Part shown: piece by piece, positions 11,371-53,116 of the stretch
Numbering within the stretch: position 1 is the stretch's first letter
Layout: each line of letters starts with the position of its first letter
Assembly (NCBI GenBank): GCA_963668315.1
Contig: OY764216.1
Coordinates: forward strand, 4,576,001 to 4,640,000
Reading direction: 5' to 3'
Source of the DNA: Spirochaetia bacterium
GTDB taxonomy: Bacteria > Spirochaetota > Spirochaetia > DSM-2461
DNA: 64,000 nucleotides
Made by a program: the position numbers and the translations under genes
Notes under the pieces: generated by a model
What the model was told of the DNA's origin: nothing
The model's input: only the letters and a program-made list of their open reading frames with translations
Database searches by the model: none

Positions 11371-11553
11371 TTACACCAAGAAAATGACACCAAAATTCAG
11401 GTATAATATGATATCTATTGACATCATCTGCTATTTTATTTCCCCTCCCCTCTTCCCTAAATCGAAACATATGCTATAATTAGACAACACTTGATAGAAA
11501 TGCAGGACGGCCTCATAACCCGAAGGCCGGAGGTTCGAGTCCTTCCCCTGCTA
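11371..11553 (+). mobile_element. attR-like island end: T(T/G)ACACCAA arm-type repeats plus the 3' half of tRNA-fMet
   Basis: ttacaccaagaaaatgacaccaaaa at 11371; ctcataacccgaaggccggaggttcgagtccttcccctgcta at 11512-11553; 11371-11529 is repeated at 45748-45906. Confidence 0.85.
11512..11553 (+). pseudogene. 3' fragment of initiator tRNA-Met(CAT)
   Basis: CTCATAA anticodon loop, CCCGA stem strand, GGAGG-TTCGAGT-CCTTC T-arm, CCCTGCT-A acceptor strand; no D-arm upstream. Confidence 0.88.
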
Positions 11554-11560
11554 AATTATT

Positions 11561-11593
11561 AAAGAGTAAGGTTTTAACCTTACTCTTTTTTTT
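11561..11593 (+). terminator. Rho-independent terminator after the tRNA fragment
   Basis: aaagagtaaggtt/aaccttactcttt perfect stem plus T-run. Confidence 0.85.
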
Positions 11594-11646
11594 GTTATAA
11601 TCACACAGTTAGGTCGAAATCTGACAGTATTAGTGACAACAGAAAC

Positions 11647-11782
11647 GGGGGAAAGGCTCGAAACGCAAGAAGCGCCGACCCGTGGGAGGAAGAGCGCACA
11701 GGACGTGCGCGGCAGCGACTGGAGGCGCCTGGAGCGAGGAAGCAGGATGCTGACGAGTGCAAGGCGAGTCCTTCCCCTGCTA
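11647..11782. repeat. GC-rich tRNA-linked palindromic element
   Basis: Ends in a second copy of cgagtccttcccctgcta (11765-11782) and starts with an imperfect inverted copy; internal hairpins gcgcac-aggac-gtgcgc and agca-gga-tgct. Confidence 0.7.
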
Positions 11783-11902
11783 AATATTATTATTTCTTTT
11801 GTAGAAAAGAAATATGATACTAACTACCGGAAGACCAGCGTTTCTATCAAAATCCAGTTACACCAAGAATGACACCAAAACCATTCTTGTAAGGGAGTTG
11901 AT

Positions 11903-11943
11903 ATGAACCGCCGGTCTTTCTATTTATACCGACGAAATTCCGA
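11903..11943 (+). pseudogene. Probable N-terminal stub of the island integrase, cut by IS256
   Basis: RBS agggag + ATG, MNRRSFYLYRRNS, right after the arm-type repeats at 11858-11878; the frame does not resume after the IS. Confidence 0.35.
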
Positions 11944-13238
11944 TAAAGCAACCCTTTTGTCTGTAAAATCAGAAAAGGTTAATCAGTCTCCATATTCAAG
12001 TATCGCTTGCCAGTAAGCCATTGTTCATCTATTTCCATTAACAGAGCGGCTATCAAACGATCAACGGATTTCCTGTTTGGAAATATCATGGCTACCCTTG
12101 TTCTCCTCTTTATTTCTTTCATCTGGCGTTCTGCCAGATTTGAAGTTCTTAACCGTCGCCAGTGAGTCCTTGGCATTGAAAATACAGTCAGAGATTCTGG
12201 GATATTTTCATCCATCCAGCGGCTCAGATTGGGTGCGGTTACTTCATATTTTTTCACAGCCATGGAAAGAAAGCGTTTTGCTTCTACCCCATTGGGGGCG
12301 TTAAAAATAGTTCTGATATCTTCTGCTACCTCCTTTTCCATGCTTTTCTTAGGGACATGGTGGGATGCATTCTGTTGGAGATGAAACTGACAACGCCGCC
12401 AGGGGACCGTAGGAAAAACGGCCTCTATTGCCAATTTCAGACCACTGTGTGCATCAGAGGTTATTATTCTGATTCCATGCAGTCCTCGATCAACCTGTCC
12501 AGACAGAAACTTTCTCCAATGAACATCAGCCTCGCTGAGTTCTGTTGAAATCCCAAGAACTCTTCTCATCCCTTTATTATCAATACCATAGGCAATTAGA
12601 ACAGCAGCAGAGACCACCGCTCTATCAACACGAGCTTTTTCGTAAGTGGCATCTACAATGAGATAGCGGAAAGCTCCCAGTGGACGATTCGCCATTTGGA
12701 AATTTCCTCATCTAGCATGGTCGTTGCCTCTGACACCTGAGATTGAGAAACCTCGAAACCGCAGAGCTGCTCAACAATTTTAGTTACTCGGCGAGTGGAT
12801 ACGCCTTGAATTACATCTGAGCAATGGCCATTTTCAGCGCTCTTTCGCTACGGCACCCCTTTTCAATACTGCCTGGATAGAATTCCATCCCGCGGACCTG
12901 TGGTATCTCGATAGGGATCTCGCCGACTCGAGTCCGAATCTTCCTGCTCTTGTACCCGTTTCTATGGCCAATACGATCGTCATTCCGTTCATAATGACTG
13001 GCTTTAATTGCCTTTTCTTGCTCTAACCGCATGGATAAATTCATTATTGAACTTATGACCTTTGTTAATCCTTCTCTATTATCTGCCTGGAGATCTTCAA
13101 TCATCTGATCGAAAACGCTATAATAATCTTCGTTAGTCATGATGCCTCAATTTGTTTTTCGTCGAACTAATCGAAGACTGATTGACTAACTTTTTCAAGC
13201 CCCCTTTATTTCTAATTTACAGACAGAATTGTACACTA
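11944..13238 (-). mobile_element. IS256-family insertion sequence, inactive
   Basis: Imperfect terminal IRs sharing tgtctgtaaa; about 1.3 kb; no target duplication evident. Confidence 0.88.
11979..13140 (-). pseudogene. IS256-family transposase with two frameshifts
   Basis: RNGY, IPQVR, GVSTRRV (in a third frame), DATY.K, SDAH.GL, RCQFH, RTSN..ER motifs; breaks near 12811 and 12692. Confidence 0.92.
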
Positions 13239-13429
13239 GCCCCTACTCCACAAGAGATTCCTCTGGCTATTCTCTCCGTATTGTCCATTCGGGAAGAGTT
13301 AAACCATTAATCCTTTACCCATCTTTTTAGAAAAAGCCTACTAACAGCGGTTTAATATCCGCCAGCAAGAATAGACAATAATGGCCTGCTACTAAGCAGG
13401 AAATTATACAACTAACGGAAGAAAAGCAA

Positions 13430-13927
13430 TCAGATCTCATCCATAATCTGTTTTGTCCAGTCAGATATTCGATCATCACTCAAATCGGCCTGATTATCTT
13501 CATCGAGAGCCAGGCCGATGAAAGCACCACCTTTCACGGCTTTTGATTCTGTAAAATGATACCCATCAGAAGACCAGGCGCCAATGAAATTGGCTCCCGT
13601 TCCGGACAGGGATTCGTAAAGGATTCCCATGGCGTCTACATAAGTATCTTCATAACTTTCCTGATCTCCCAATCCGAAAAATCCAACTTTCTTCCCGTTC
13701 AGGTCCAGTTTACCCAGATCCCCAGATATAGCCTCCCAGTCATCCTGCAAATCCCCGAATCCCCATGTGGATGTCCCCATAAGAACCACATCATAACCGC
13801 TTAACTGAGAAAGGGAATTTCTATCGGCCCCCATTAGATCAGCGTCTCCCAGAGCAGCTTGAATTCTCTCCGCAGCCTGCTGAGTGTTACCTGTGGTAGA
13901 TCCATAAATAATTGCAATTCTTGACAT
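13430..13927 (-). CDS. fldA: Long-chain flavodoxin
   Basis: YGSTTGNT, STWG.GDLQDDW, FGLGDQ, GLALDEDNQ motifs. Confidence 0.95.
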   Translation of the reverse strand: MSRIAIIYGSTTGNTQQAAERIQAALGDADLMGADRNSLSQLSGYDVVLMGTSTWGFGDLQDDWEAISGDLGKLDLNGKKVGFFGLGDQESYEDTYVDAMGILYESLSGTGANFIGAWSSDGYHFTESKAVKGGAFIGLALDEDNQADLSDDRISDWTKQIMDEI

Positions 13928-13939
13928 TATATACTCCTC

Positions 13940-14278
13940 TTATACTACCCTCTTAAAAGAGGGAATTGTTTTTCTTTTCAAATATCGCTGACATTGCTGC
14001 AAGCGGCCATAACCAAGCATGGTTCCGAGAATAAAATCTTCTTCGCATGTGAATTCATTCAGAGGCTTATAGCCGAAGCTGGTGATAATATCCACACAAG
14101 CCTGTTCCCCAAAAAAGATATTTATTTTCTTATTGCTTAATTTCCGGATAAGGTAAGGAATCTTGTTCTGAATAAGTTTTTTCTCAGCCTGCTCTTCATA
14201 GGGAGAAGGTAATGTATGAAGGACAAGACTTCTCAATCCTTTTTTATATTCGTATATATGATGATAAAATACTTTCAT
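13940..14278 (-). CDS. DUF2023 family protein
   Basis: MKVFYHHIYEYKKGLR.LVL.T and EEDFILGTMLGY; RBS ggaggag; sits next to flavodoxin. Confidence 0.85.
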   Translation of the reverse strand: MKVFYHHIYEYKKGLRSLVLHTLPSPYEEQAEKKLIQNKIPYLIRKLSNKKINIFFGEQACVDIITSFGYKPLNEFTCEEDFILGTMLGYGRLQQCQRYLKRKTIPSFKRVV

Positions 14279-14539
14279 AATCTCCTCCCCAAAAAACAAA
14301 AAGTGGTCTCCTTTACCACAATCTGTCGGAGACTCCCTTTACACCCGTAACAAGATCATACATATTTACAGGTATTTTAGCATATCTACCTTTATTAGTC
14401 TATCCTATTTTTTATTATTATTTATACATGCCACACTATGATATTCTATATTAACATTATTAGTTGACACTATATTTTATTTAACATAAGATCTTTGCAA
14501 TAATCTATTCTAATTTATTAAATATAAGGAGAATTTCTT

Positions 14540-15562
14540 ATGGAAAAACCTATCCTACTATTAGGGCTGATGCTCCCCTGCCTGCTCTTTTCCAACGGTC
14601 AGTCAGAGAAGTATTTTGGAGAAGCAGGTAAAATCACCGCCTACATTTCCGGTCCAGAGAATATGCTTAAAGCCCTTGAAGCAGCCTTCGAAGAAGACCG
14701 GGGAGATGTTATCGATTTTGTACAAATGGGCTGTGGTCCGCTCAGGCAGAGGATCTGGGCGGAGTGGGAATCGGGGCAAATACGAGCTGATCTATTTTGG
14801 GGATCGGATCCTCTTATCTATAACAGGCTTGACGATGAGGGAGCCCTGGAAGAGTATCATTCTCCTGCCCTGGATATGGTTAAGGAGGATTACCAGACGG
14901 AAAGGAACTATACATTTGTCAGCGAAAGATACGGAGTTATTATCTATAACGAGGATCTCCTTGCCGAAAATCCCGTTCCTGTCTCCTACAATTCTCTCCT
15001 CGAAGCTCAGTACAAGAACCTGGTCATTCAAGCCGATCCCGCCCAATCTTCTACCGCTTTAGCCATTACAGCCTGTCTCTGGTTAATGAAGGGAGAAAAT
15101 TGGGATTTCTACAAAGGACTGGTGGAGAATCAGTCCCTTATGCTGGCCAAAAAGAACAGCGACGTTCCTTCCCGCATACAAGAGGGAGAGTTCCTGGCAG
15201 GTATTGCACCCCACGATGCGGTGCTGAGGCTGCAGAAGAAGGCAAAGAGCGAGGGTTATCCCATGCCGCTTAAGATATCCTGGCCCCAAGAAGGAGCCAT
15301 GGCCATCGTACGGCCCATCGCTATCAGTAAAAATGAGGCCCGTCCGGAAGTCAACAAACAGCTGACCCATGAATTTATAGACTTTCTACTTAGCCAGCAG
15401 GCGCAAAAAATTACTTCAAATTCCGGATTCGTCAGTGTGAGAAAAGATATTCCCGCACCCGTGTGGCTTCCTGAAAGTACAGTAATAAACAGAATGGACT
15501 GGGAATTCCTCGGTGAAAATCAGGAAGAAGTGAGACAGAGTTTCAATGCTCTTTTTGAATAA
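14540..15562 (+). CDS. ABC transporter substrate-binding protein (Fe3+/AfuA-like)
   Basis: Signal peptide, ADLFWG, DP..SS, FIDFLLS..AQ motifs. Confidence 0.85.
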   Translation: MEKPILLLGLMLPCLLFSNGQSEKYFGEAGKITAYISGPENMLKALEAAFEEDRGDVIDFVQMGCGPLRQRIWAEWESGQIRADLFWGSDPLIYNRLDDEGALEEYHSPALDMVKEDYQTERNYTFVSERYGVIIYNEDLLAENPVPVSYNSLLEAQYKNLVIQADPAQSSTALAITACLWLMKGENWDFYKGLVENQSLMLAKKNSDVPSRIQEGEFLAGIAPHDAVLRLQKKAKSEGYPMPLKISWPQEGAMAIVRPIAISKNEARPEVNKQLTHEFIDFLLSQQAQKITSNSGFVSVRKDIPAPVWLPESTVINRMDWEFLGENQEEVRQSFNALFE

Positions 15563-17189
15563 GAAAAAGAGACATCCGACGGTATTGCTTCCTGTTGTCA
15601 TATTTCTCTGCCTTTTTATTATATATCCCCTTTTCCGACTCTTTCTGGAATCTCTCGGAGAGGGGATCTTAACTTGGGATAGAAGTGTAACAGTAGCGGT
15701 TCTTAATACTCTTGCAGTCAGTACGCTAACGACAATCCTGACGATTTCCCTATCCGCCCCCCTGGCATGGCTTACAGCGCGAACGGATATTCCCGGTAAA
15801 AAACTGATTGAAAAACAGGTATGGCTGACATTTTCCGTTCCCGCCTATATCCTGGGAATCGCATGGATCGAACTACTCGGAAGAAACGGTTACCTTTTTC
15901 GTCTACTGAAGGAAGGCATGAAATATTCCAATTGGTCTTTTCCCTGCTATTCCCTCGGTGCTGTTATTGTAATTCTCTCCATTCATCTTTACCCCCTCGT
16001 TTTTATGAGTTTGCTTCCTCTATTCAGGTATCAGGATCCTAACCGGGAACAGGCCGCGGCGCTTTGCGGTTTTCCGCCCCTATCCCGCTTTTTCAGGATA
16101 ACCCTTCCCCTGATATCCCCCGGTCTGACGGCGGCCGGCCTCATGGTTTTCTCCCGCAGTGCGGCTAATTTTTCCATCCCCGCCCTTCTCGCCCTTCCTA
16201 TAAGAAAGGAAGTGCTGACCACCAAAATCTTTTCGGCATTAAGCCGATTGGATGTGGGAAAAGCCTCTTTCTACTCTTTTGTGCTTATGGGGATCTCCGC
16301 CCTGCTTTTTATGTTTCAGCAAAAAATGCTGTTGGGAAAAAACTATACCTCCGAATCAAGAACCCAGAGGGAAGACATAGTAAAATTGGGGAAATTGCGG
16401 TATCCCCTTTTTTTTCTCCTATCCCTCTTCCAGTTTTCCACAGGAATACTCCCGGTGGCGGTTCTTATTATCTCTTCCTTTCTCAAAAGGTGGGGACTCC
16501 CGCTCACCAGAGAGTTTCTTACCTTACATAATTACAAAGCTCTTTTTTCCGGAGAAACCAAAGCACTGATGGCCCTGGGAAATAGTTTGACCTACGGTAT
16601 CATTGCGGTAATAATAGCGGGAACAGCGGCTCTTATCGTTTCCTACTATTCGGTTTATCATCCCTCGCGTATAACCGGATTCGCGGAAGGGACAGCCGGC
16701 CTTCCCCTGGCTGTTCCCAACATCGTTCTAGCCATGGGGGCTATTCTGTCCTGGAATAATTCAGTGTTTCCCCTTTACGGCACATCATGGGCCATTATTC
16801 TGACCTATGCGGCTCTTTTTTTACCTATAATGTTGAAAAATATCACCGGTCTTATGAATTCCATTAAAAAAAACACGATTCAGGCCGCCCGTCTTGCCGG
16901 CGCTAGTTCGTTCCGCTCTCTCTGGGACATTCTTATTCCCCTTCTCATCCCGGGATTGGAAGCGGGAGTAATGGTCTGCCTGCTGATTGCCCTTCGCGAA
17001 ATTCCCATATCCCTTATGCTTTACTCCTCGGGACAGGAAACTCTGGGGATACTTCTTTTCGGCATGCAATCCCAATCCTACGGATTAGAAATGACTTCAA
17101 CCCTGGCCGTTTTTATTATTGTACTAACGATGACCGGGCAGAGTCTGGGAAGGAAAATAAAAAAGAACATGAGGAAAATCTATGCTTAA
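15546..17189 (+). CDS. Fe3+-type ABC permease (FbpB/AfuB-like)
   Basis: Duplicated permease with two EAA-like loops (EQAAALCG, QAARLAGA). Confidence 0.88.
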   Translation: MLFLNKKKRHPTVLLPVVIFLCLFIIYPLFRLFLESLGEGILTWDRSVTVAVLNTLAVSTLTTILTISLSAPLAWLTARTDIPGKKLIEKQVWLTFSVPAYILGIAWIELLGRNGYLFRLLKEGMKYSNWSFPCYSLGAVIVILSIHLYPLVFMSLLPLFRYQDPNREQAAALCGFPPLSRFFRITLPLISPGLTAAGLMVFSRSAANFSIPALLALPIRKEVLTTKIFSALSRLDVGKASFYSFVLMGISALLFMFQQKMLLGKNYTSESRTQREDIVKLGKLRYPLFFLLSLFQFSTGILPVAVLIISSFLKRWGLPLTREFLTLHNYKALFSGETKALMALGNSLTYGIIAVIIAGTAALIVSYYSVYHPSRITGFAEGTAGLPLAVPNIVLAMGAILSWNNSVFPLYGTSWAIILTYAALFLPIMLKNITGLMNSIKKNTIQAARLAGASSFRSLWDILIPLLIPGLEAGVMVCLLIALREIPISLMLYSSGQETLGILLFGMQSQSYGLEMTSTLAVFIIVLTMTGQSLGRKIKKNMRKIYA

Positions 17190-18264
17190 AATTGAATCAC
17201 TGACGATTAAATATGGGGATTATACCGCCTTAACTGACTTTTCAACAGAAATCCCCGACCATAGGATAACAACCGTGCTCGGTCCAAGCGGATGCGGAAA
17301 AAGCACGCTCCTCGGAGGAATTGCCGGAATTCGACAGCCTCTGAAGGGACGGATAAATCTCAACGGCAGAGTATTCTATGACGGCTGTAGAGAAATCAGT
17401 CTTCCTCCGGAAAAAAGAAATATCGGTTTCGTTTTTCAGGATTACGCTCTTTGGCCCCACTTGACTCTGGCAAAAAATCTCGATTATCCCCTGCGTGTCC
17501 GAAAAATAGACAGAAATAAAAGAAAAGAAGCCCTTGCATCCGTTCTGGACCTTATTCGCCTTAAAGGAAAAGAACACCGCTATCCCCATGAAATGAGCGG
17601 AGGAGAACAACAGAGGGCCGCACTGGGCCGTGCCCTTATTACTATGCCGGATCTTCTGATTATGGACGAGCCCCTCAGTAATCTCGACGCACTACTCCGA
17701 GAGGAGATGCAGGAGGAAATCAGGGCCCTGCAAAAAAAACTTCGCCTGACAATTCTCCATGTGACCCATGATCAGTCGGAAGCCCTGGCTATGAGCGACC
17801 ATATCATCCTGATGAACCAAGGCCGGTTGGAACAGGAGGGACCGGCCCGCTGGATCTACAGGAAACCGGCGAATTCCTTTTGTGCCGATTTCCTGGGCAA
17901 AAGCAACTTGATAGAAGGGGAAATCATACGGCGGGACGGGTTTGACTGTTTCTCCTGCGGGGGAAAGATATTCTCCCTTCCCCCCGGAGTTTTACATTCC
18001 GCCGGGACTATTATAGATCGGGCCAAAGGACTATTTTCTCTTCGTCCTGAAGATATTCAGATGAAAGAAGGAAGTAGCCAAAAACTTTTCCTGGAGGCGG
18101 GATGGGGGATTATCAGTCATATAACCTACAAAGGCCCCTATTCCCTTTATCACGTACAATGGGAAAATCATGATCTCCGTATATGGGACAGAACCGGCAT
18201 AGCTTATAAGGAGGGAGACACTGTTCCCCTCCAGTTCAAGCGGCTTGTCCGTCTGGAAAGATAG
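17182..18264 (+). CDS. ABC ATP-binding protein (FbpC/PotA-like)
   Basis: GPSGCGKST, MSGGEQQR, DEPLSNLD, VTHDQ.EA, TOBE-like tail. Confidence 0.93.
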   Translation: MLKIESLTIKYGDYTALTDFSTEIPDHRITTVLGPSGCGKSTLLGGIAGIRQPLKGRINLNGRVFYDGCREISLPPEKRNIGFVFQDYALWPHLTLAKNLDYPLRVRKIDRNKRKEALASVLDLIRLKGKEHRYPHEMSGGEQQRAALGRALITMPDLLIMDEPLSNLDALLREEMQEEIRALQKKLRLTILHVTHDQSEALAMSDHIILMNQGRLEQEGPARWIYRKPANSFCADFLGKSNLIEGEIIRRDGFDCFSCGGKIFSLPPGVLHSAGTIIDRAKGLFSLRPEDIQMKEGSSQKLFLEAGWGIISHITYKGPYSLYHVQWENHDLRIWDRTGIAYKEGDTVPLQFKRLVRLER

Positions 18265-18383
18265 TCTCTTCCTCCGAATTGTTCAACTCTCTGCATCATC
18301 TGTTATCTCTTCTTAGGAGAACCTTGTATTGTCCGGCTAGTTATTACGCTTTTCTAAAAATCAAAAATTGTTTCGCTCTTAAC

Positions 18384-18438
18384 TTGACAGTTGCAGAGAG
18401 AGGGGTTACAATACAAATGAAAATGATTTTCATTTTCA
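18384..18438 (+). promoter_or_regulatory. Sigma70 promoter and Fur-type box
   Basis: TTGACA(18384)-17 bp-TACAAT(18407); palindrome aatgaaaatgattttcatt at 18416. Confidence 0.8.
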
Positions 18439-18451
18439 AAGGAATTAAACA

Positions 18452-18931
18452 ATGAGACATGGTTACGGAAATGGACAGGGACGCGGTCGTCAATGGGGCA
18501 GACAGCTTGAAAACCACGGAATACGGCCTACGGCCGCCCGGGAACTGGTATTCTCTGTCATGAGGGAAACCAGGGAGCATTTAAGCGCGGACGATGTTTT
18601 TCAGGAAGTGAGAAGGATAGAACCGGGAATCGGTCTTACTACGGTATACCGGAGCCTTGAATTGCTCTATCAAAATGGCCTCGTGAAAAAATACGATTTC
18701 GGAGACGGAAGGGCTGTTTTTGAACTGAACGATAAATACAGCGGCAAAGGCCCCCATCACCATCTTATCTGCCGGAAGTGCGGAAAGATTCAAGATCTGA
18801 CCAGTTGTCTCTCTGAAGAGAGGTCTTTTACCGATACAATGAAAATCTGTATCGAATCGGAATATCAGTTTGCGGCGGAAGAAACAGTTATCCGTGTATA
18901 CGGCCTCTGTTCGGACTGCCGAAAAGAGTAA
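18452..18931 (+). CDS. Fur family transcriptional regulator
   Basis: HLSA, TVYRSL, HHHLICxxC, C-terminal CxxC. Confidence 0.95.
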   Translation: MRHGYGNGQGRGRQWGRQLENHGIRPTAARELVFSVMRETREHLSADDVFQEVRRIEPGIGLTTVYRSLELLYQNGLVKKYDFGDGRAVFELNDKYSGKGPHHHLICRKCGKIQDLTSCLSEERSFTDTMKICIESEYQFAAEETVIRVYGLCSDCRKE

Positions 18932-18946
18932 TTTTTTTTAAGTTTT

Positions 18947-18969
18947 AATGAAAATGATTTTCATTTTCA
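18947..18969 (+). promoter_or_regulatory. Second identical Fur-type box
   Basis: aatgaaaatgattttcattttca, identical to 18416-18438. Confidence 0.8.
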
Positions 18970-18994
18970 TGCAGTGTTATAAGGAGGTACAATT

Positions 18995-19333
18995 ATGGCA
19001 CGCGGAGATAGAAGAGGACCCGAAGGAAGAGGTCCGATGACAGGACGGGGCGCCGGTTACTGTTCCGGCAGCAGTGTTCCCGGATTTATGAACAAAGCTC
19101 CCCGCTGGGAACAAGGACTCGGTATGGGCCGGGGCAATCGCGGTATAGGGATGGGCAGAGGAATGGGCCGTGGATTCGGCTTTAGCGCTTATCTTACCCA
19201 GGGGGGAGACTACTACCCTACTCCCGTCGATGAACGGGAGATGCTGAAAAACGAGGCGGAAGGATTGAAAAAAAGCCTCGAGATCATTATAGCCCGCCTT
19301 GATGAGCTTGAAAAAAAGGATTCCGAATCCTGA
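18995..19333 (+). CDS. DUF5320 family Gly/Arg-rich protein
   Basis: GD..GP.G.GPMTGRGAGYC start, C-terminal coiled coil. Confidence 0.88.
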   Translation: MARGDRRGPEGRGPMTGRGAGYCSGSSVPGFMNKAPRWEQGLGMGRGNRGIGMGRGMGRGFGFSAYLTQGGDYYPTPVDEREMLKNEAEGLKKSLEIIIARLDELEKKDSES

Positions 19334-19361
19334 ACCGAATAGTTTCTGAAATGTAAAGAAT

Positions 19362-19399
19362 GAGGATTGTCCCGCAGCACAGATTGCCGGATAATCCTC
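19362..19399. terminator. Hairpin between convergent genes
   Basis: gaggattgtcc...ggataatcctc. Confidence 0.5.
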
Positions 19400-19401
19400 T
19401 G

Positions 19402-20058: not shown

Positions 20059-20068
20059 AACTTGACTC

Positions 20069-20722: not shown

Positions 20723-20831
20723 TATAGCCTCCCGGGAAGATTATAGAGGAAATAGTTAGATCTTACAATCATAATTATGCATGCCTAATGCTGTCGACAT
20801 ATCACCCAAAAGAAGGATTTTCCCCAAGACA

Positions 20832-20874: not shown

Positions 20875-20890
20875 AAAGCTTCCTGCCTTT

Positions 20891-42430: not shown

Positions 42431-42446
42431 TTAGGCCTGTTGTCAT

Positions 42447-45747: not shown

Positions 45748-45906
45748 TTACACCAAGAAAATGACACCAAAAACCATGTATAACCTGCTTATTACTGACA
45801 TCATCTGCTATTTTATTTCCCCTCCCCTCTTCCCTAAATCGAAACATATGCTATAATTAGACAATACTTGATAGAAATGCAGGACGGCTTCATAACCCGA
45901 AGGCCG
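45748..45906 (+). mobile_element. Second attR-like island end with truncated tRNA-fMet fragment
   Basis: Near copy of 11371-11529 (offset 34377); tRNA match stops after gaaggccg. Confidence 0.85.
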
Positions 45907-46270
45907 ATGACTATAGATTTGGTTTTATGAAAACAATCTATATTAAGAAGCACCTATCCCACTACCCTATTTATTCAAAGAAAACGGCAGGAGAAATATT
46001 ATATTTAGCAGCAAGCTTCTGAATATGTTGTTTATTAAGTTCTCTCTTACCCGAAATAATCTCACTGATAACCGATTGGGGAGCAATATCACTCAAATCT
46101 GATTGTTTATGCTGGTGCTCTTCCATTAATCCTTTTAACATATCAATAGAAGATACTTTTGGCGTAGGAATATTCCCTTCATATTCATTAAGCAGATTTT
46201 TTATGTAATGATATAACCCTTTCAAATAGGTTTTCTTTTCTTCAATAATTAACCCATTTAGCTGAAGAAG
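45866..46270. repeat. 405-bp direct repeat, copy 1
   Basis: Aligns with 53076-53480 at a constant offset of 7210. Confidence 0.92.
45971..46270 (-). pseudogene. higA: 5'-truncated HigA-like antitoxin copy
   Basis: Near-identical to the C-terminal part of 53172-53591. Confidence 0.8.
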
Positions 46271-46322: not shown

Positions 46323-47011
46323 TTGATTCTAGCTTTTTTACAAATAATCAGCAGGCTTAAAAAATCACTTTTACAACAGAACATCAGCATAGACATGATC
46401 ATTTTGTCAATGTCATTACTGGCAGAGCTTAAGTATCAGGAAACAGGACGCCATATTCTTCGGACCAAACAATACTGTCAGATTCTGTCTGATGCGCTGA
46501 GACATGGCAGGAAGTACAATAATGGTCTCAACTACAGTGATATAGAAAATATCGAGAGATTAGCCCCACTTCATGATATAGGAAAGGTAGAGATTCCTGA
46601 AAAGATTTTCCTTAAGCCTGGAAAACTTAACGAAGAAAAATTTGAAGTAATGAAAACCCATCAATTATGGGAGCTTATGTGCTGCAGTCTGCTATAGAGC
46701 AATTGGGAGAGTCCTCCTTCCTCTCTACCGGGATACAAATGATACTTTATCATCATGAAAAATGGGATGGTTCAGGATATCCGTATGGATTACTTGGAGA
46801 AAACATTCCTCTGGCCGCCAGGATCATGGCGGTTGCGGATGTTTACGACGCCTTAAGAAGTAAGCGCCCCTATAAGAAGCCGATAAGCCATGATGAATCA
46901 ATCCGCATTATCAGGAATGGTTCAGGGAAACACTTTCAGCCGGAACTGGTTGAAGCCTTACTGAGGATAGAAAAGGACTATGAAAGAATATCGATTGAGC
47001 TGGAAGATTGA
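46323..47011 (+). pseudogene. HD-GYP (RpfG-like) phosphodiesterase, frameshifted and probably 5'-truncated
   Basis: ETG.HI.R and APLHDIGK in one frame; HHEKWDGSGYP in another; break near 46665. Confidence 0.85.
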
Positions 47012-47068
47012 AAATACCGATATTTTTTTATTTTTTATTTGACAGCTAAAAAATCCCATGTTAGGCTT

Positions 47069-47091
47069 TACTTGTCTGATAAGCAGACATC
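47069..47091 (+). promoter_or_regulatory. FadR/GntR-type operator, copy 1
   Basis: tacttgtctgataagcagacatc (TGTCTG-N5-CAGACA), just after TTGACA-17-TAGGCT. Confidence 0.75.
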
Positions 47092-47188
47092 ATCTATGTA
47101 TATGTCTACTTATCATTACTCTTCTTCATCATGAAGAAGGGACAGCTTATCTATAAGCTGTATTAAAAACATGTAAAAAGAGTGCCTT

Positions 47189-47755
47189 ATGGAATACGAA
47201 ATAACAAAAGAATTAGCCGACCGTGTAGTAGACATCGTTCATGGTATAACAGGTGGGGATGTGAATATCATGGTAGAAAAAGGCCTGATTATATCATCTG
47301 CCGATCCGGATCGGATAGGAACCACTCACGAGGGTGGTGTAAAAATCATGAATAGAGAACTCAGTGAGATAGCTATTACCTCTCAGATGGCTAGCACAAT
47401 CAAAGGGACAAAAGCTGGATATAACGGCGGAATCTACTATAAAAATCATTTAATCGGATGCATAGGTATCGGCGGCAATCCGGAAATTGTTAAGCCCCTG
47501 CAAAAAATGGCTGCGATCATCGTAGAGGAGACAATCGGCAGGGAAGAACAAAGAAAGGCTGAAGAAGTGTTAAGGAACGAGGCTGTTTCAAAAATTACTA
47601 ATATAGCGGAAGCAATGAATGTTCTGTCTTTGAATGGCTCAATACAGGCGGCAAAAATAGGCAGCAAAGGAAACGCATTCAAGGTAGTAGCCGTAGAAAT
47701 GAGAAATCTGGCTGAATCAATTAACAACGCTATTGATTTTTTTAAAAGGAGCTGA
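47189..47755 (+). CDS. Sugar-diacid recognition (CdaR N-terminal) domain fused to a short MCP signalling segment
   Basis: VNIM..G.II.S.D..RIG..HEG, IGI.G.P; LSLNGSIQAAK.G..G..FKVVA.EMR.LA. Confidence 0.8.
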   Translation: MEYEITKELADRVVDIVHGITGGDVNIMVEKGLIISSADPDRIGTTHEGGVKIMNRELSEIAITSQMASTIKGTKAGYNGGIYYKNHLIGCIGIGGNPEIVKPLQKMAAIIVEETIGREEQRKAEEVLRNEAVSKITNIAEAMNVLSLNGSIQAAKIGSKGNAFKVVAVEMRNLAESINNAIDFFKRS

Positions 47756-47817
47756 CGGGTGATTTGCCTTTAAAGTCTAATAATGCTTTGACAAATGGAA
47801 AGAAAGACAGGTATTGT

Positions 47818-47840
47818 TACTTATCTGATAAGCAGACATC
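47818..47840 (+). promoter_or_regulatory. FadR/GntR-type operator, copy 2
   Basis: tacttatctgataagcagacatc, one mismatch to copy 1, downstream of TTGACA at 47788. Confidence 0.75.
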
Positions 47841-47862
47841 CTATAAGTAACTGGAGTTACAC

Positions 47863-48558
47863 ATGAGAAGAAAAACAAGACTGTCTGAACAAGTTGTAGA
47901 AGAGATCGATCGAATGATCAGGGAGGAAGGATTCGGCAATGGAGACAAATTCTACTCTGAGAACGAATTGACCAAAATGCTTGATATCAGCAGAGCGTCG
48001 GTCAGAGAGGCTGTGCGGATTCTTGAGATATCAGGCCGGGTTATTGTTCGTCAGGGTAGAGGTATTTTTATACAAAATAAAATTGAGCAGGGGCTAGATA
48101 GTTTTGCCTCGTGGCTTAAGAGTAATAGTTCCCAGTTGGATGAGCACTTTGAATTGAGAATGATTCTGGATCCGAAGGCGGCAGCTTCTGCTGCCCGAAA
48201 CGCTACGGATGAGGATATTCGTGAGATGGAGAAAGCTCTTTCAAGTTTTAATCATCAGGAAGAAACAGATAACCTTGAAGGTGAAATCAAAGATGACCGG
48301 CGATTCCACCTCTCCATGGCTAAATCAACAAAAAACCGTAGTCTTTATGTTTTGATGAAAACCATGGCTGAAAATCTTAATGACGGCTGGATTTCCAGTC
48401 TTAGAATACCAGGCAGAGCACGGAAAACCATTCGGGAACACAGGGATGTTTTTCAAGCCATAAAAGATCGCAATCCGGAAAAAGCGGAAAAAGCAATGCT
48501 GAAGCATTTGGAAAACGCGTTGAAAGAGATTAAAGAATATATGAAGGAAAATAACTAA
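47863..48558 (+). CDS. FadR/GntR family regulator
   Basis: SENEL...ISRASVREA..G.G.F; FCD domain D..FH, EH..V. Confidence 0.93.
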   Translation: MRRKTRLSEQVVEEIDRMIREEGFGNGDKFYSENELTKMLDISRASVREAVRILEISGRVIVRQGRGIFIQNKIEQGLDSFASWLKSNSSQLDEHFELRMILDPKAAASAARNATDEDIREMEKALSSFNHQEETDNLEGEIKDDRRFHLSMAKSTKNRSLYVLMKTMAENLNDGWISSLRIPGRARKTIREHRDVFQAIKDRNPEKAEKAMLKHLENALKEIKEYMKENN

Positions 48559-48587
48559 CCGGATTCGGTTCATATTAGGAGAATACT

Positions 48588-49427
48588 TTGTTTATCAGAA
48601 TAACGACTCTCGTGGAAAACAGCAAGGGAGAACATCTCGGTTTAGTCCATGAACACGGGCTTTCATTTTTGATAGAAAAGGACGGAAAATCCTTCCTTTT
48701 TGATACAGGACAGGGAGATGCTATCATTCGGAATGCACAGAAGCTTGCTCTGGATATTTTCAGTGTGGGCGATATTATTCTCAGTCACGGCCACTATGAT
48801 CACAGTGGAGGAATCACCTCCCTTTTAAAAGAAGGGGGTTCCGCGTTTACTCCGAGAATTCATGTCCACAAAGGCTTTTTCATCCCCAAATACGGCATGC
48901 ATAATAATCGAGCAGAATTTCTAGGCAATGATTTCACTCCAGAAGACCTTAGAAATCATGGTTGCCCGATCAGTACATGTCATAGCGGAATTAAAACTAT
49001 TGCAGAGGGTGTCTGGATCGTTGGCGATTTTGGAAAAAACCATCCCGAGGAGGTTATCAGCGAGCGCTTCTGCCTTTTAACTGACAAAGGAATGGAACCG
49101 GATATGTTTACCGATGAAATCATGATGGTTATTGACAGCCCTAAAGGACTAATCCTGTTAGCCGGATGCTCCCATCCGGGAATTATGAATATGATTGATA
49201 CGGTCTGCAGCCATTTTGACAAAAATATCTATGCCATATTGGGAGGGACCCACCTTGTTGAAGCCGGTGAAACACAGCTGAAGAGCGCAACAGGATATCT
49301 TTACGATCTGGACTGTCAGGTAATAGGCGTTTCACACTGCACAGGCAAGGATGTCATGGAGACTCTGAGCAAAACCGATCAAAGATTTTTTCACAACCGC
49401 ACAGGAAGTTCGCTGATCATCAGCTGA
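48588..49427 (+). CDS. Metallo-beta-lactamase-fold hydrolase
   Basis: EHGLS, FDTG, SHGHYDHSGG, GCSHPG, GGTHL, HCTG. Confidence 0.9.
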   Translation: MFIRITTLVENSKGEHLGLVHEHGLSFLIEKDGKSFLFDTGQGDAIIRNAQKLALDIFSVGDIILSHGHYDHSGGITSLLKEGGSAFTPRIHVHKGFFIPKYGMHNNRAEFLGNDFTPEDLRNHGCPISTCHSGIKTIAEGVWIVGDFGKNHPEEVISERFCLLTDKGMEPDMFTDEIMMVIDSPKGLILLAGCSHPGIMNMIDTVCSHFDKNIYAILGGTHLVEAGETQLKSATGYLYDLDCQVIGVSHCTGKDVMETLSKTDQRFFHNRTGSSLIIS

Positions 49428-49465
49428 CTTTTTGAATAATAACAAAATTCCCAAGGAGGAAGTTT

Positions 49466-50809
49466 ATGACCAGTGGATTATTTCTATTCGGAATAATTAT
49501 CATTGCAATCGTCGGGATGATTCTGCTCATCTCCAAGCTTAAATGGCACCCCTTTTTAGTGCTCATTCTGGCTGCGTACTTTATAGGACTGGCAACAGGT
49601 ATGCCGGTGGACAAGATTATCGATGTCATCAAGTCCGGTTTCGGAGGTATCCTCGGCAGTATCGGAATTGTCATCATCGCCGGAACAATCATTGGAACCA
49701 TTCTGGAAAAAACTGGCGCTGCCCTGACCATGGCTAATTCCATTCTGAATCTTGTAGGCAAAAAGAGAGCCCCGCTGACTATGAGCCTAACAGGTTATGT
49801 AGCCAGTATTCCCGTTTTCTGTGATTCGGGGTTCGTCATCCTATCGCCTATCAACAGAGCTCTGGCTGAAAAATCGGGAGTATCTCTGGCTGTTATGGCC
49901 ACGGCACTCAGTTCCGGTCTTTACGCGACCCATTGCCTTGTTCCCCCCACTCCCGGCCCTATCATCATGGCAGGAACCCTGAACGCTGATCTGGGACTAG
50001 TCATCCTTACCGGTCTTCTTGTCTCCATTCCCGTTATGCTTGCCGGATATTTTTACGCTATAAAAGTGGCTGCCCGCTATCAGATCGATGCCAATCCCGA
50101 AGTCAGCCTGGATGATCTCCTGGCAAAATATGGAAAACTTCCCGGTGTTGTTCCGAGTTTTGCTCCCATTATCCTGCCCATTATCCTGATCGCCTTCAAG
50201 TCTATTGCGGATTTTCCCTCTGCGCCCTTCGGTGACGGATTTATAAAGAACTTTTTTGACTTTATCGGTAACCCCGTAACGGCCCTGATCATGGGGATCG
50301 GACTGGCCACAACCCTTATTCCAAAGAAAGAGAAAAGTGAAACTTTCAATTGGATTTCGGAAGGGATAAAGCATTCTGCTTCTATTCTTGCTATCACCGG
50401 CGCCGGCGGAGCGTTGGGGCAGCTGTTAAGGGAACTTCCCTTGGCAGATGCTCTGAGCAATTCCCTGCTCCAGATGAATCTGGGCCTTCTGATTCCCTTT
50501 ATCATAGCGATGCTGCTTAAATCAGCCATGGGGGCTTCTACTGTTGCCATGATCTTAACCTCAGCTATGGTAGCTCCCCTTATGGCTCAGATGGGCCTGA
50601 CAACCGAAATGGCTAAAGTCCTGACTGTTTTGGCAATAGGAGCCGGTTCGATGACCGTTTCTCATGCTAATGACAGCTATTTCTGGGTGGTTTCACAGTT
50701 CTCCGATATGGATACTCAGACCGCATACAAATGTCAGACGGGCGTAACCCTGGTTCAGGGAGTCGTATCTATCGTCATTATCCAGATCATTGCTTTGATT
50801 GCCCTTTAA
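49466..50809 (+). CDS. GntP family permease (glycerate/sugar acid)
   Basis: IPVFCDSGF, HCLVPPTPGP, SHANDSYFWV. Confidence 0.93.
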   Translation: MTSGLFLFGIIIIAIVGMILLISKLKWHPFLVLILAAYFIGLATGMPVDKIIDVIKSGFGGILGSIGIVIIAGTIIGTILEKTGAALTMANSILNLVGKKRAPLTMSLTGYVASIPVFCDSGFVILSPINRALAEKSGVSLAVMATALSSGLYATHCLVPPTPGPIIMAGTLNADLGLVILTGLLVSIPVMLAGYFYAIKVAARYQIDANPEVSLDDLLAKYGKLPGVVPSFAPIILPIILIAFKSIADFPSAPFGDGFIKNFFDFIGNPVTALIMGIGLATTLIPKKEKSETFNWISEGIKHSASILAITGAGGALGQLLRELPLADALSNSLLQMNLGLLIPFIIAMLLKSAMGASTVAMILTSAMVAPLMAQMGLTTEMAKVLTVLAIGAGSMTVSHANDSYFWVVSQFSDMDTQTAYKCQTGVTLVQGVVSIVIIQIIALIAL

Positions 50810-50935
50810 GGCTAGTTAAAGCTGATCCGGATAAAACACCAGCGACAGGAGTGCAATCATCAACTGCGAAACGATGTCACCGCGCCCCTGTCTGCTGATT
50901 TATATAAATGATATTACATAAACGGATAAACCGCA

Positions 50936-51580
50936 ATGAACAGAATCAAATTGTTTTTTTTCAATCGTTTTGCACTGAATGCATATATCAGTCAGGACTA
51001 TCCAAAGGCTCTTTTCTGGTATGAGAAGATTCTCAATACGAATACGGAAAGAGTTGGTCTGATGCATAATATCGGTTTGTGTCACTTTGCCATGAATGAC
51101 TATGACAATGCGGAAACTTTTTTGCTGGAAGAACTCAGCCGCTACGGAGACACGGATGGAAGGTTGAGGACTCTGGGCGATCTATATTACCGCTGGAAAA
51201 AAGGAGACCAGGCCCTTGTATTTTACAGGAGGCTCCATGATTATCTCAATCAGGATGAATGCTGGCTGAAGATTCGTATCGCCTTGCTGGAAAATGGAGC
51301 GAAAACACAAAAGGCGCTCTGTGCAGCTGATAGGCTGGATGAAGCTCTTGAGAAAATGAAATGCGGATTAGCGGATGATGCACGAAACCTCCTGGAACTG
51401 GGAGCAGAAGAAGATCCCAGCAGTTTTCAGATTCTGAACAACCTCGGAATCATTGCTCTGCAGGAAGATAACGATGCTGCTAAAGCGGTCTCCTTCTTCG
51501 AACAAGCCGAAAAACTGATGCCGATTCCCATGCACAGAGCCAACTTGAAAAAAGCCCGTAGTATTATGCTGCAGGAATAA
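50936..51580 (+). CDS. Tetratricopeptide repeat protein
   Basis: NIGLCHF...YD.A and NNLGII TPR patterns. Confidence 0.8.
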   Translation: MNRIKLFFFNRFALNAYISQDYPKALFWYEKILNTNTERVGLMHNIGLCHFAMNDYDNAETFLLEELSRYGDTDGRLRTLGDLYYRWKKGDQALVFYRRLHDYLNQDECWLKIRIALLENGAKTQKALCAADRLDEALEKMKCGLADDARNLLELGAEEDPSSFQILNNLGIIALQEDNDAAKAVSFFEQAEKLMPIPMHRANLKKARSIMLQE

Positions 51581-51661
51581 TAAGAAAAAACAGATTTTTT
51601 TGATATAGGGACCAATGTATTCACACTGTGGATTTAAGGAATAGAGGAGAAAAGTACATTC

Positions 51662-52801
51662 ATGAAAATTGTCATAGCACCGGATTCTTTTAAGGGAACA
51701 AACACCAGTCTAGCGGTAGCCAGCCATATAGAAGAAGGCATTTTAAGGGTTTACCCTGATGCTCAGTGCATAAAAGTACCTGTTGCGGATGGTGGAGAAG
51801 GTACCGTCGACTCGGTTATCGATGCGCTTGGAGGGAAAAAAGAGACTGTAAAGGTCTGCGGACCGCTAGGAAAAAAAAGAAATGCCACTTATGGTCTTGC
51901 CGGAGAAACTGCGGTTATTGAGATGGCAGAAGCATCTGGGCTCCCCCTTATTCCTGATGACAAGAGAAATCCCATGTTAGCGACAAGCCGTGGAACCGGG
52001 GATTTGATTTTAGACGCCCTGGATAAGGGGTGCCGCAAAATCATTATGGGAATCGGGGGAAGTGCCACAAATGATGGGGGAACCGGACTGGCCCGGGCAC
52101 TGGGATACCGATTTCTGGATGCTGACGGCACTGAACTTTTAGAAGGCGGTGGTTCTTTAGATAACTTAGCTTCTATAGATGTTTCCGCCGTGGATAAACG
52201 ATTAAAAGATGTGGAAATCATGGTGGCCTGTGATGTAACAAACCCTCTTCTGGGTGAAGAAGGGGCATCCTTTGTTTACGGTCCGCAGAAGGGAGCCGAT
52301 CCCTCTATGGTACGGCATCTGGATAAAGCCCTGGAACGCCTGGCTGATATCGCGGAAAATTGCTTGGGAATAGAAGCCCGGAATATCCCGGGAAGCGGTG
52401 CCGCCGGTGGACTTGGATTCGGTTTGATCGCTTTCTGCGGTGCGGATCTGAAATCGGGAATCGATATAGTCCTGGATACGGTAAAATTGGACAGTTATTT
52501 CGGGGATGCCGACTTGGTTATTACCGGAGAAGGGAGAATGGACAGTCAGTCAGTCAATGGAAAAGTTCCCGTCGGAGTCGCAGGAAGAGCAAAAAAACAT
52601 GGGCTCCCTGTGCTAGCAATCGTCGGCGATATGGGACCGGGCGCCATGGATGTGCTGCCATACGGGGTTGATAGTATAATGAGTACGGTGAACAGAGCTA
52701 TGCCTTTGAACGAGGCTTTAGATAAGTCGTCCCCTCTAATGGTGGAAGCAGCCGAAAGAGCAATGAGAATGATTGCTATGGGTATGTCTCTTAATAAATA
52801 A
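51662..52801 (+). CDS. glxK: Glycerate kinase (GlxK/GarK family)
   Basis: APDSFKG, ADGGEGT, GGSATNDGG, GPQKGA, TGEG..D.Q. Confidence 0.96.
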   Translation: MKIVIAPDSFKGTNTSLAVASHIEEGILRVYPDAQCIKVPVADGGEGTVDSVIDALGGKKETVKVCGPLGKKRNATYGLAGETAVIEMAEASGLPLIPDDKRNPMLATSRGTGDLILDALDKGCRKIIMGIGGSATNDGGTGLARALGYRFLDADGTELLEGGGSLDNLASIDVSAVDKRLKDVEIMVACDVTNPLLGEEGASFVYGPQKGADPSMVRHLDKALERLADIAENCLGIEARNIPGSGAAGGLGFGLIAFCGADLKSGIDIVLDTVKLDSYFGDADLVITGEGRMDSQSVNGKVPVGVAGRAKKHGLPVLAIVGDMGPGAMDVLPYGVDSIMSTVNRAMPLNEALDKSSPLMVEAAERAMRMIAMGMSLNK

Positions 52802-52952
52802 TAATCTCTGAAAATCAATTGTATTTATTTTTAGATGCTATGAGAAACAAAACCATGTCGCAACAAAAATCACGCCATGCTTAGCACCCTAACCTAAAAC
52901 AACGGCACAGTATACAGAGTAAGAGATAGACCCTTATGCTCTTTATATAATG

Positions 52953-52981
52953 AGCACTTTCTCCGGAAGGTGCTTTTTTTT
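52953..52981 (+). terminator. Rho-independent terminator
   Basis: agcactttc...gaaggtgct plus T-run. Confidence 0.8.
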
Positions 52982-53020
52982 ATATAGTACTATTTCCGGG
53001 ATTCATCCTTTCCAATCAAA

Positions 53021-53116
53021 TTACACCAAGACTCCAGAATCATGATATAATATGCTATCTATAGTAGTAGAATAAACTTGATAGAAATAGAGGACGGCCT
53101 CATAACTCGAAGGCCG
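53021..53116 (+). mobile_element. Third, degenerate attR-like island end
   Basis: ttacaccaag at 53021; acttgatagaaat..aggacggcctcataactcgaaggccg. Confidence 0.7.

Follow-up and report, generated by a model that had tools for sequence, protein, structure and literature searches.

How pieces of an attachment site for the initiator tRNA gene come to lie inside an island that belongs to another tRNA gene is the question raised by a 64,000-nucleotide stretch of a Spirochaetia bacterium genome (GCA_963668315.1, contig OY764216.1, positions 4,576,001 to 4,640,000; referred to here as the window). Positions of up to five digits refer to the window and seven-digit positions to the genome.

Three junctions for tRNA-fMet

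Three units, J1, J2 and J3, start at 11371, 45748 and 53021, as the original prediction held, and their 7-nt anticodon-loop sequences are at 11512, 45889 and 53099, respectively. In both J1 and J2, TTACACCAA, TGACACCAA and TTGATAGAAA occur at -141, -127 and -21 from the loop. J3 has TTACACCAA at -78 and TTGATAGAAA at -21, so that the expectation of the same repeats in all three units holds for J1 and J2 but not for J3, which has one intact arm repeat instead of two. Each motif by itself is abundant in the genome (16, 14 and 31 copies), and therefore only the combination of motifs is informative. On both strands of the 5,624,497 bases, the composite unit occurs at three sites, all of them inside the window; the genome-wide scatter that the prediction had counted against itself is not seen in this 5.6-Mb genome. 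The 18-nt core is found at five sites, which are J1, J2, J3, tRNA-fMet and one real island junction.

The J1 and J2 arms are identical at 130 of 141 positions. The J3 arm has lost 63 nt and is identical to the J1 arm at 63 of 78 positions; in a variable 17-mer of the arm it agrees with J1 at 16 positions and with J2 at 11. The tRNA 3' half is complete (42 nt) in J1 only, and the fragments in J2 and J3 end after 18 nt at the same base. A tRNA fragment starting with CTCATAA had been expected in each unit, but the loop of J2 differs by one base (TTCATAA). The predicted degeneration from J1 to J3 is visible, but it is in part a single truncation common to J2 and J3. J1, J2 and J3 are real scars of mobile DNA aimed at the initiator tRNA gene.

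Location of the tRNA gene and the integrase

The sole tRNA-fMet gene of the genome (4839184-4839256) is 199 kb to the right of the window, and the fragments in J1 to J3 are located 210-252 kb upstream of it. Of the three tRNA genes with a CAU anticodon in the genome, none that carries the fMet fragment sequence is located in the island region to the left. An intact integrase of the family designated B is encoded at 4859354, 219 kb to the right of the window. This tRNA-fMet-specific protein of 440 amino acids keeps the positions of the R-K-H-R-H-Y motif. The gene is flanked by the same arm motifs as are found in the window, and its junction holds the same tRNA-fMet 3' half, which supports the view that the units are att junctions of one tyrosine integrase family that crosses over at the anticodon loop. 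The intact tRNA and active integrase that had been expected to the left of the window are not there, and in this assembly no co-oriented tRNA-fMet is found upstream of the junctions, an outcome that the original prediction had itself named as damaging.

Three integrase families, A, B and C, each have their own repeat pair on both sides of the element, 117-169 nt from the loop. The array at tRNA-fMet consists of A and B elements; it lacks a family-B right end and has nested IS256 copies at 4872359-4875015. The intact family-B element carries genes for SSB, a Gam-like protein and RecT, and no relaxase was found among the 12 of its ORFs that were scanned. The gene behind its integrase matched only unnamed, mostly viral clusters in the Atlas. 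Among the 14 matches to PF00589 in the genome, none falls between 4523222 and 4638318 and none in 11-53 kb of the window, and in 4.455-4.652 Mb the remnant at J1 was the only trace found of a family-B integrase or P' arm.

Element E2 between J1 and J2

The segment from 11512 to 45888, designated E2 (34.4 kb), is the sole segment with both ends. Its features, together with the J1 arm, are as follows.

11371..11500, plus strand: left (P-type) arm of J1, family B, with direct repeats at 11371 and 11385 and a 10-mer at 11491
11512..11553, plus strand: tRNA-fMet 3' half of J1, from the anticodon loop to the discriminator, identical to the tRNA at 4839184-4839256
11554..11782, plus strand: native tRNA-fMet downstream DNA, 75% match to the DNA behind tRNA-fMet in congener G001
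11783..11902, plus strand: P'-type arm, family B, with inverted 10-mer TTTCTATCAA at 11841, arm repeats at 11858 and 11870 and a ribosome-binding site; 81% match to 4859204-4859392
11903..11941, plus strand: family-B integrase stub of 13 codons, beginning with the ATG at 11903
11942..13241, minus strand: IS256-family element, transposase in two ORFs, interrupting the integrase after the stub
13430..44744, strand unassigned: E2 cargo, with flavodoxin, Fur, iron/B12-type ABC uptake, MetE and others

The prediction that arm repeats and an inverted 10-mer (11841-11878) precede an integrase stub is confirmed, since 11 of the 13 residues match the start of the intact 440-residue integrase. The distance from the loop to the 10-mer exceeds that in the intact family-B element by 217 nt. 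The rest of the E2 integrase was not found with tblastn, and the IS256 element is not flanked by a target duplication. The cargo further includes ABC and MATE exporters, MMPL, an ArsP-type permease and L,D-transpeptidase; no relaxase, coupling protein or T4SS families were detected among the E2 ORFs scanned. RND efflux genes are located to the left of J1, and the earlier labels of efflux, metal uptake and glycerate use are appropriate for the three segments.

Repeats linked to tRNA genes exist, for example, behind E. coli tyrT. In J1, a terminator scan places an intrinsic terminator at 11561-11597 behind the tRNA half, and at the end of a tRNA-linked repeat of about 190 nt the tRNA 3' end is found a second time, over 18 nt. 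A terminator and a unit of this kind are found behind tRNA-fMet in G001, G006 and G010, which resembles the arrangement at tyrT. Unlike the tyrT repeats, one unit here has become enclosed in an att site, with the core on one side and the P' arm on the other, and the sequences are unrelated as far as tested, in that no Rfam family was matched in the window.

J2 and J3 as copies of one joint

The region from J2 to the flank right of J3 (X) contains the following features.

45748..45906, plus strand: J2, with full family-B P arm, loop TTCATAA and 11 more tRNA nt
45907..46270, minus strand: X', a copy of the flank right of J3, 95% match to 53117-53480 over 364 nt
46323..52801, plus strand: cargo of segment E3, with HD-GYP pieces, CdaR-like, GntR, MBL-fold, GntP permease, TPR and glycerate kinase
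52926..53011, plus strand: tract like the terminator region that follows tRNA-Leu(GAG) and its att copies, 79-82% over 65-87 nt
53021..53116, plus strand: J3, with shortened family-B P arm, loop and one change in the next 11 nt
53117..53591, minus strand: X, a hairpin spacer and the intact HigA-like HTH_3 gene of the tRNA-Ile2 island

X' contains the 3' part of the HigA-like HTH gene, which breaks off and runs into an HD-GYP gene without its 5' end; runs X2, X3 and X4 each have a single short-read contig that spans this joint. The spacers of X and X' are identical at 62 of 64 positions. With a common breakpoint and a common right flank, J2 and J3 are two copies of one joint rather than two insertions. 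No P' arm or integrase was found in 45889-53098, including the left end of E3, and no left border is present to the left of J1. Together with the common breakpoint of J2 and J3, these results leave the claim of three independent insertions at tRNA-fMet without support.

The surrounding island at tRNA-Ile2

The window lies inside a 125-kb island, island C, which is integrated at tRNA-Ile2 on the minus strand, opposite to J1 to J3. The tRNA-Ile2 gene (4649123-4649050), whose identity is based on 81% likeness to tRNA-Ile(GAU) and on elimination, and the island C integrase (4649016-4647736) are 8-9 kb beyond the right edge of the window. The far end of the island is a 46-nt copy of the Ile2 3' end with C-type arms at 4524047; a further Ile2 attachment copy is at 4482985, and both are to the left of J1. 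Island C thus has what the canonical definition of a tRNA island requires, namely the tRNA, an integrase and a downstream, co-oriented 3' fragment, with a length of 2-200 kb. PHROGs gave integrase and replication-initiator matches for the island. In congener G003, an element D abuts tRNA-Ile2 directly (96% over 3.6 kb), which places the insertion of island C at that tRNA gene, in front of D. That island C is a mosaic of siblings is shown by several AbiEi/AbiEii modules and by another C-type arm, at 4528297. Parts of the island within the window are listed below.

10724..11049, minus strand: 3' part of a DUF4825 gene and terminator, 91% match to a truncated repeat 13.6 kb to the left (4573117-4573441)
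54502..64000, minus strand: head of island C, with a replication-initiator-like gene (55115-56026), an IS91-type transposase and a CBASS SAVED effector
61100-63115, minus strand: the IS91-type transposase with its own tyrosine recombinase, in the head of island C

The tyrosine recombinase (62252-63115) was considered as the island integrase and rejected, as it is XerA/integron-like and adjoins the IS91 transposase. Cross-talk through the CTCATAA loop, which tRNA-Ile2 has in common, was likewise rejected, given that J1 to J3 are on the opposite strand and have no adjoining Ile2 sequence.

Proposed history and its alternatives

The reading preferred here, with modest confidence, is that J1 to J3 are fMet att junctions stranded in the Ile2 island, that J1 and J2 likely bound a single E2 inserted into an orphan fMet att fragment, and that J3 is likely an unoccupied sibling of that fragment. 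The history would begin with the joint present in the window, in which a family-B arm, the loop and 11 nt of tRNA are linked to the higA flank X. This joint would have arisen once, by illegitimate deletion or graft, plausibly in a host with two CAU tRNA genes facing each other as in G001. A family-B circle that had acquired a tRNA terminator and linked repeat would then have crossed over at the loop of the orphan site, leaving the old arm, new tRNA half and P' arm as J1, and the new arm and X' as J2. The J2 arm is close to that of J1, but the 17-mer of J3 sides with J1, which fits an old J1 arm and a J2 arm that arrived with E2. IS256 has removed the E2 integrase, and E2 would now be mobile only with island C or through an integrase acting in trans. 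Finally, a deletion may have joined the island copy to a sibling copy with an empty, decayed site (J3), and in doing so brought in the glycerate genes. The arms match only this genome among 41 genomes in a set with no close relative, and neither an empty site nor a sibling island turned up in other places, so the suggested order of events rests on one genome. Counting against this history, the DNA to the left of the J1 arm and that to the left of the J3 arm are unrelated. The J3 arm (81%) is more altered than X (95%), which also fits an origin of J3 from a different family-B element, and the crossover, within the common 18-49 nt, could have been homologous rather than integrase-made.

It is rather unlikely, but not far-fetched, that ordinary tandem accretion at a genuine tRNA-fMet gene, here or in a donor, produced J1 and J2, and that IS-mediated or illegitimate recombination afterwards moved the finished block into the Ile2 island, in which case the orphan site was never a target. 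The tRNA-fMet array closes with nested IS256 copies and has no family-B attR; this missing family-B right end speaks for a transplant from there. J1 also has a native terminator and linked repeat that are absent from the tRNA-fMet locus of this genome, other island pieces have moved in this genome, and decay grows away from J1, as described for arrays at tRNAs (PMC7563491). A single graft, however, predicts the same arm in J2 and J3, yet J3 sides with J1; the DNA to the left of J1 has neither a left border nor a P' arm nor an integrase that would belong to a further element, and the P' arm in the window is not the end of the resident family-B element, whose own P' arm it matches at only 81%. 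An improbable variant places tRNA-fMet once to the left of J1, facing tRNA-Ile2, and moves it across later, so that the history first proposed would be right and the map changed. Both tRNAs are indeed convergent and 29 kb apart in G001, beside the same core genes, and many rearrangements separate G001 from this genome. The Ile2 attachment copies left of J1 nevertheless nest J1 to J3 in island C, and an extra move is needed anyway; moreover, the gene next after the fMet attR in G003 is still located behind the fMet array here, and the two tRNAs are far apart in G007 and G012.

Strain variants or a long-range misjoin could have produced the tandem order or a wrong placement, which is very improbable. 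The last 200 kb of the contig have 58-63% GC compared with about 51% overall, so that the assembly may hold foreign DNA, and short-read contigs break at common repeats and cannot fix long-range order. On the other hand, the unusual joints lie within single contigs (11532-11971; 46224-53137), the second of these intervals being unbroken in short-read contigs of two studies; the window and the tRNA-fMet locus have no repeat of at least 200 nt at 95% identity or more in common; and all pieces have similar depth in run X4 (202-249), with both X copies at single-copy depth. Runs X1, X4 and X5 are one sample, possibly the source of the assembly, and independent support comes only from X2 and X3. Depth steps in X3 (15, 9, 5, 4) follow GC, reverse in X4 and were left unused, and X6, with 0.46 of the words, gave short low-depth pieces only. 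No excision joints, or loose ends beyond known repeats, were seen in the runs, which consist of contigs and are uninformative on this point either way. The version of the original prediction, three successive insertions at a tRNA-fMet gene just left of the window, accounts for the co-oriented units, the single arm family and the rightward decay, but it retains almost no probability given the positions of the CAU tRNA genes and PF00589 matches and the one breakpoint of J2 and J3.

Comparison with known systems

Islands with att sites at the anticodon loop (A-subsite) of tRNA genes, and tandem arrays of them, are described in the Islander report (PMC4383910). Features in common with that type are a tyrosine integrase, a displaced 3' piece of the tRNA that begins at the anticodon loop and arm repeats on both sides, and the arrays at tRNA-fMet (A, B) and tRNA-Ile2 (C, D) of this genome fit it fully. 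The fragment in J1 extends from the crossover to the tRNA 3' end, as in the Islander definition; those in J2 and J3 lack that end. Unlike Islander-type fragments, which lie downstream of an intact, co-oriented tRNA gene and have an integrase for each member, J1 to J3 are upstream of the tRNA with no integrase between, the stub at J1 being the only trace. The Islander filters for configuration, length and integrase, as described there, would reject all three.

Based on studies of Streptococcus CIMEs and site-specific accretion (PMC7563491, PMC5704250), E2 resembles a CIME, a decayed element that keeps both att ends and cargo but has lost its integrase. Both ends of E2 are present, with the P' arm displaced by 217 nt and one base of the J2 loop altered, and may still serve as attL and attR; its integrase is lost apart from the stub, and transfer genes are absent from the ORFs scanned. 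An ICE or IME ancestry is putative. As in the history proposed here, incoming elements in Streptococcus are described as entering resident att sites to give elements within elements, but there the att site includes the target gene's end, whereas here that gene is missing and the site lies in an island of other specificity. Prochlorococcus tycheposons, as described in a preprint (bioRxiv 10.1101/2020.12.28.424599), are likewise cargo-carrying integrase elements at tRNAs, with fragmented integrases and partial tRNAs across islands, replication-type genes and nutrient-uptake cargo. They belong to a different phylum and are compared here by description rather than by hallmark profiles, and the partial tRNAs described for them are copies of the island's own tRNA, whereas the fragments here are from another tRNA.

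Accretion, decayed cis-mobilizable elements and nested islands are already in print, and only the placement is unusual. A literature search that covered a minority of subscription journals turned up neither an account of this element family nor one of a tRNA att fragment serving as a target in the island of another tRNA. If the proposed history is true, the target specificity of an integrase does not dictate where its cargo settles; a stray tRNA fragment in another island can serve as a target, and islands of one specificity can gather and carry the elements of others. Nested elements of this sort would escape island finders that demand a fragment downstream of the tRNA. What is gained is a single unusual example and a substrate open to testing, rather than a new mechanism. 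A broader and more doubtful suggestion is that islands of this lineage carry broken-off att fragments as landing pads, so that an fMet integrase could load a 34-kb element into an Ile2 island, which would carry it along as a single 125-kb unit; further cases might be a tRNA-Leu fragment in a tRNA-Pro island and a core at 2668402, and the integrase and its partner gene might form an undescribed family.

Occurrence elsewhere

An exact pattern scan of metagenome contigs returned no copies of the junction, and searches for the family-B integrase gave 51 candidates in metagenome contigs and two in viral contigs, none of which was confirmed. The HigA-like gene had matches in 25 of 401 genomes, mostly at 32-50% identity outside this genome, and at six further distant loci. 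No J1- or J3-like sequence was present at 25 non-self HigA-like loci that were fetched, which are too distant to reveal an empty site. A family-B-like integrase is present in 1 of 37 other genomes of the family, where it has 41% identity and is located at tRNA-Thr. Within the genome studied here, a tRNA-Leu fragment lies inside a tRNA-Pro island, and the family-B core at 2668402 is decayed.

Position and anatomy of the junction units

The three units, each combining attachment-site (att) arm repeats with a tRNA-fMet fragment, lie where the original prediction located them (offsets are relative to the anticodon-loop heptamer).

11371: J1, heptamer at 11512; repeats at -141 and -127, 10-mer at -21
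45748: J2, heptamer at 45889; repeats at -141 and -127, 10-mer at -21
53021: J3, loop at 53099; single repeat at -78, plus the 10-mer

The composite unit occurs three times in the 5,624,497-base genome, always within the window, and its 18-nt core occurs in five places. The entire tRNA-fMet 3' half is present in J1. The tRNA part of J2 and J3 ends at the identical base after 18 nt, where an identical flank begins; the two share 413 nt at 94% identity with the core included, or 364 nt at 95% to the right of it. The J2 arm agrees with that of J1 at 130/141 positions, and the J3 arm retains 63/78 with 63 nt lost. In the sole stretch in which the J1 and J2 arms diverge, J3 agrees with J1 at 16/17 positions and with J2 at 11/17. 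The left neighbors of the J1 and J3 arms are unrelated DNA.

An intact tRNA-fMet and an active integrase had been expected to the left of the window, where neither tRNA-fMet nor a family-B integrase is present. No tRNA gene was found within the 64-kb window, and the initiator tRNA (4839184-4839256, plus strand) lies 199 kb to its right, so the fragments are upstream of tRNA-fMet, a configuration rejected by Islander (PMC4383910). None of the genome's 14 PF00589 matches falls between 4523222 and 4638318, and searching 4.455-4.652 Mb with relaxed settings revealed no further family-B right arm and no tRNA-fMet 5' half. Two defining features of a canonical tandem array at tRNA-fMet are missing from J1-J3, namely a fragment downstream of the tRNA and an integrase belonging to each member, so they do not form one. 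The array at tRNA-fMet itself is an ordinary tandem: integrase A comes first, with CRISPR-Cas cargo, and integrase B (440 aa) lies past the junction at 4859180.

Repeat pairs are specific to one integrase family each and flank the element on both sides, 117-169 nt from the loop; the window repeats are those preceding integrase B. Positions 11765-11941 are 81% like the integrase-B junction, and a 13-codon stub starting at ATG 11903 resembles integrase B in 11/13 residues before it is interrupted by an IS256 element, for which a target duplication is absent. The arms, loop and integrase stub had thus been correctly identified, since motifs and stub match the integrase-B junction. Their position and the established att anatomy of tyrosine integrases suggest that the repeats bind the integrase.

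Between the J1 tRNA half and the right (P') arm are a terminator and a unit of ~190 nt, at the end of which the tRNA tail appears a second time. The insert is native downstream DNA of tRNA-fMet: it is 75% like DNA behind that tRNA in the congener G001, with similar units in two other genomes of the family (G006 and G010). Exactly this insert would be carried by an element that had recombined out of the chromosome at the second tRNA tail. Neither a J1-type insert nor a right end of family B is present at the genome's own tRNA-fMet locus, where nested IS256 copies (4872359-4875015) adjoin the gene found behind the fMet attR in the congener G003. The ~190-nt repeat with its tRNA-tail copy (window 11554-11782; loci L010, L014 and L022) lies behind tRNA-fMet in several genera of the family, as tandem copies in some genomes, and has no Rfam match. 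A related unit lies behind tRNA-Gly(CCC) at 1235684.

The host island at tRNA-Ile2

A second CAU tRNA, 81% like tRNA-Ile(GAU), is located on the minus strand 9 kb right of the window and can be read as tRNA-Ile2. Integrase C follows it, and 46 nt of the tRNA 3' half recur, accompanied by C-type arms, 125 kb away at 4524047. In G003, element D lies immediately at tRNA-Ile2 (96% over 3.6 kb versus the genome under study); therefore, C inserted ahead of D and the window is wholly inside C. Integrase C has relatives in 11/401 genomes, and its ten other loci are at CAU tRNAs (three), tRNA-Leu (five), tRNA-Lys (one) and a site with no visible tRNA (one).

Element D (4524047-4520436) is 96% identical to G003:C79:14-3620, with integrases at 99%. 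Because core genes are only ~75% alike, D appears to have been transferred recently between the two species. Elsewhere in the tRNA-Ile2 array, 4487701-4494397 is a 6.7-kb repeat (96%) of the tRNA-Leu(GAG) island at 1663994-1670692. An IS91-type transposase, encoded in two overlapping ORFs (window 61100-63115), has a 287-aa tyrosine recombinase of its own ahead of it. The head of island C (window 63524-64000 and L004:1-6850) encodes a CBASS operon (SMODS, E2/E1, JAB and SAVED effector) and an OLD-like nuclease; other defense cargo comprises SIR2-HerA in island B and type I CRISPR-Cas in island A.

Number of insertions and possible histories

Three separate insertions are not supported. Both ends are present only in 11512-45888 (element E2, 34,377 nt); 45889-53098 begins with a truncated copy of the J3 flank instead of a P' arm, and no left border for anything left of J1 was found in the relaxed search. 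In the simplest reading, the J1 arm joined to the copy of the higA-like flank right of J2 would be one original orphan site, a sibling of J3, into which E2 integrated at the anticodon loop. Two sibling copies of C would later have become joined by a deletion running from the higA-like copy (cut at 46270) to an HD-GYP gene. Duplications in C fit such a mosaic of siblings: AbiEi/AbiEii modules recur, a further C-type arm lies at 4528297, and a truncated 327-nt copy (91%) is present left of J1. In G001 the two CAU tRNAs are convergent and 29 kb apart. A single deletion in a host with that layout would bring an fMet attR next to the higA flank, oriented as observed; restoring the far end of C would then require an additional exchange, and the two genomes are otherwise heavily rearranged.

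Alternatively, a ready-made fMet array could have been transplanted into the present position, which we consider unlikely, though the absence of a right end in the resident fMet array favors it. Still less probable is a rearrangement starting from the tRNA order of G001. Counting against the orphan-site reading, the DNA left of the J1 arm is unrelated to that left of the J3 arm, and no second example came to light. Family-B arms matched only the genome under study among 41 genomes, family-B-like integrases (E<=1e-40) occur in 1/37 other genomes, and scans of three sequence collections yielded no second example of the junctions or of the integrase.

The orphan-site reading concerns a kind of arrangement that is already known, in an unusual placement. 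Comparable features are the partial tRNAs and broken integrases of Prochlorococcus islands (bioRxiv 10.1101/2020.12.28.424599). The literature searched contained no description of the family-B element family or of such placement.

Assembly support

The region 45000-54500 is present in six short-read runs from two studies, five of them at 0.99 of words, and 46224-53137 is unbroken in contigs of X2, X3 and X4. Depth in X4 is 242-247 for both copies of the higA-like flank and 234-249 for unique DNA. Positions 11532-11971 form one contig in X1, X4 and X5, which are a single sample that may be the assembly source; long-range order and excision are beyond the reach of these contigs. The final 200 kb of the assembled contig (5420000-5624497) has a GC content of 58-63% versus ~51% overall and may be foreign DNA joined during assembly.

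Related features elsewhere in the genome

Behind each of four integrases that target tRNA genes and are 25-41% alike lies one member of a set of related genes (137-213 aa).

L005:9369-11107: integrase and partner gene
L006:9354-11314: integrase and partner gene
L004:7131-9016: integrase and partner gene
G000:C1:3448448-3446476 (genome under study): integrase and partner gene

The three partner genes scanned had no Pfam or PHROGs match, and the Atlas lists unnamed, mostly viral clusters for the gene, which is a candidate family marker or accessory factor. Repeats of ~100 nt between short single genes in islands B, C and others were found with two queries in 14 places (4547450, 4865650, 4867050, 4868350 and ten more), and, judged by eye, they resemble integron attC sites.

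A decayed family-B core (2668402-2668370, minus strand; 91% over 33 nt versus J1) borders a ~12-kb block flanked by two copies (75% identical) of the 3' part of a gene. The block contains a paralogue (74%) of the L,D-transpeptidase gene of E2. A 59-nt tRNA-Leu(GAG) 3' fragment with terminator (3446448-3446390, minus strand) lies immediately behind the second gene of the tRNA-Pro(GGG) island, 1.8 Mb from tRNA-Leu, and is a second displaced att fragment within the island of another tRNA.
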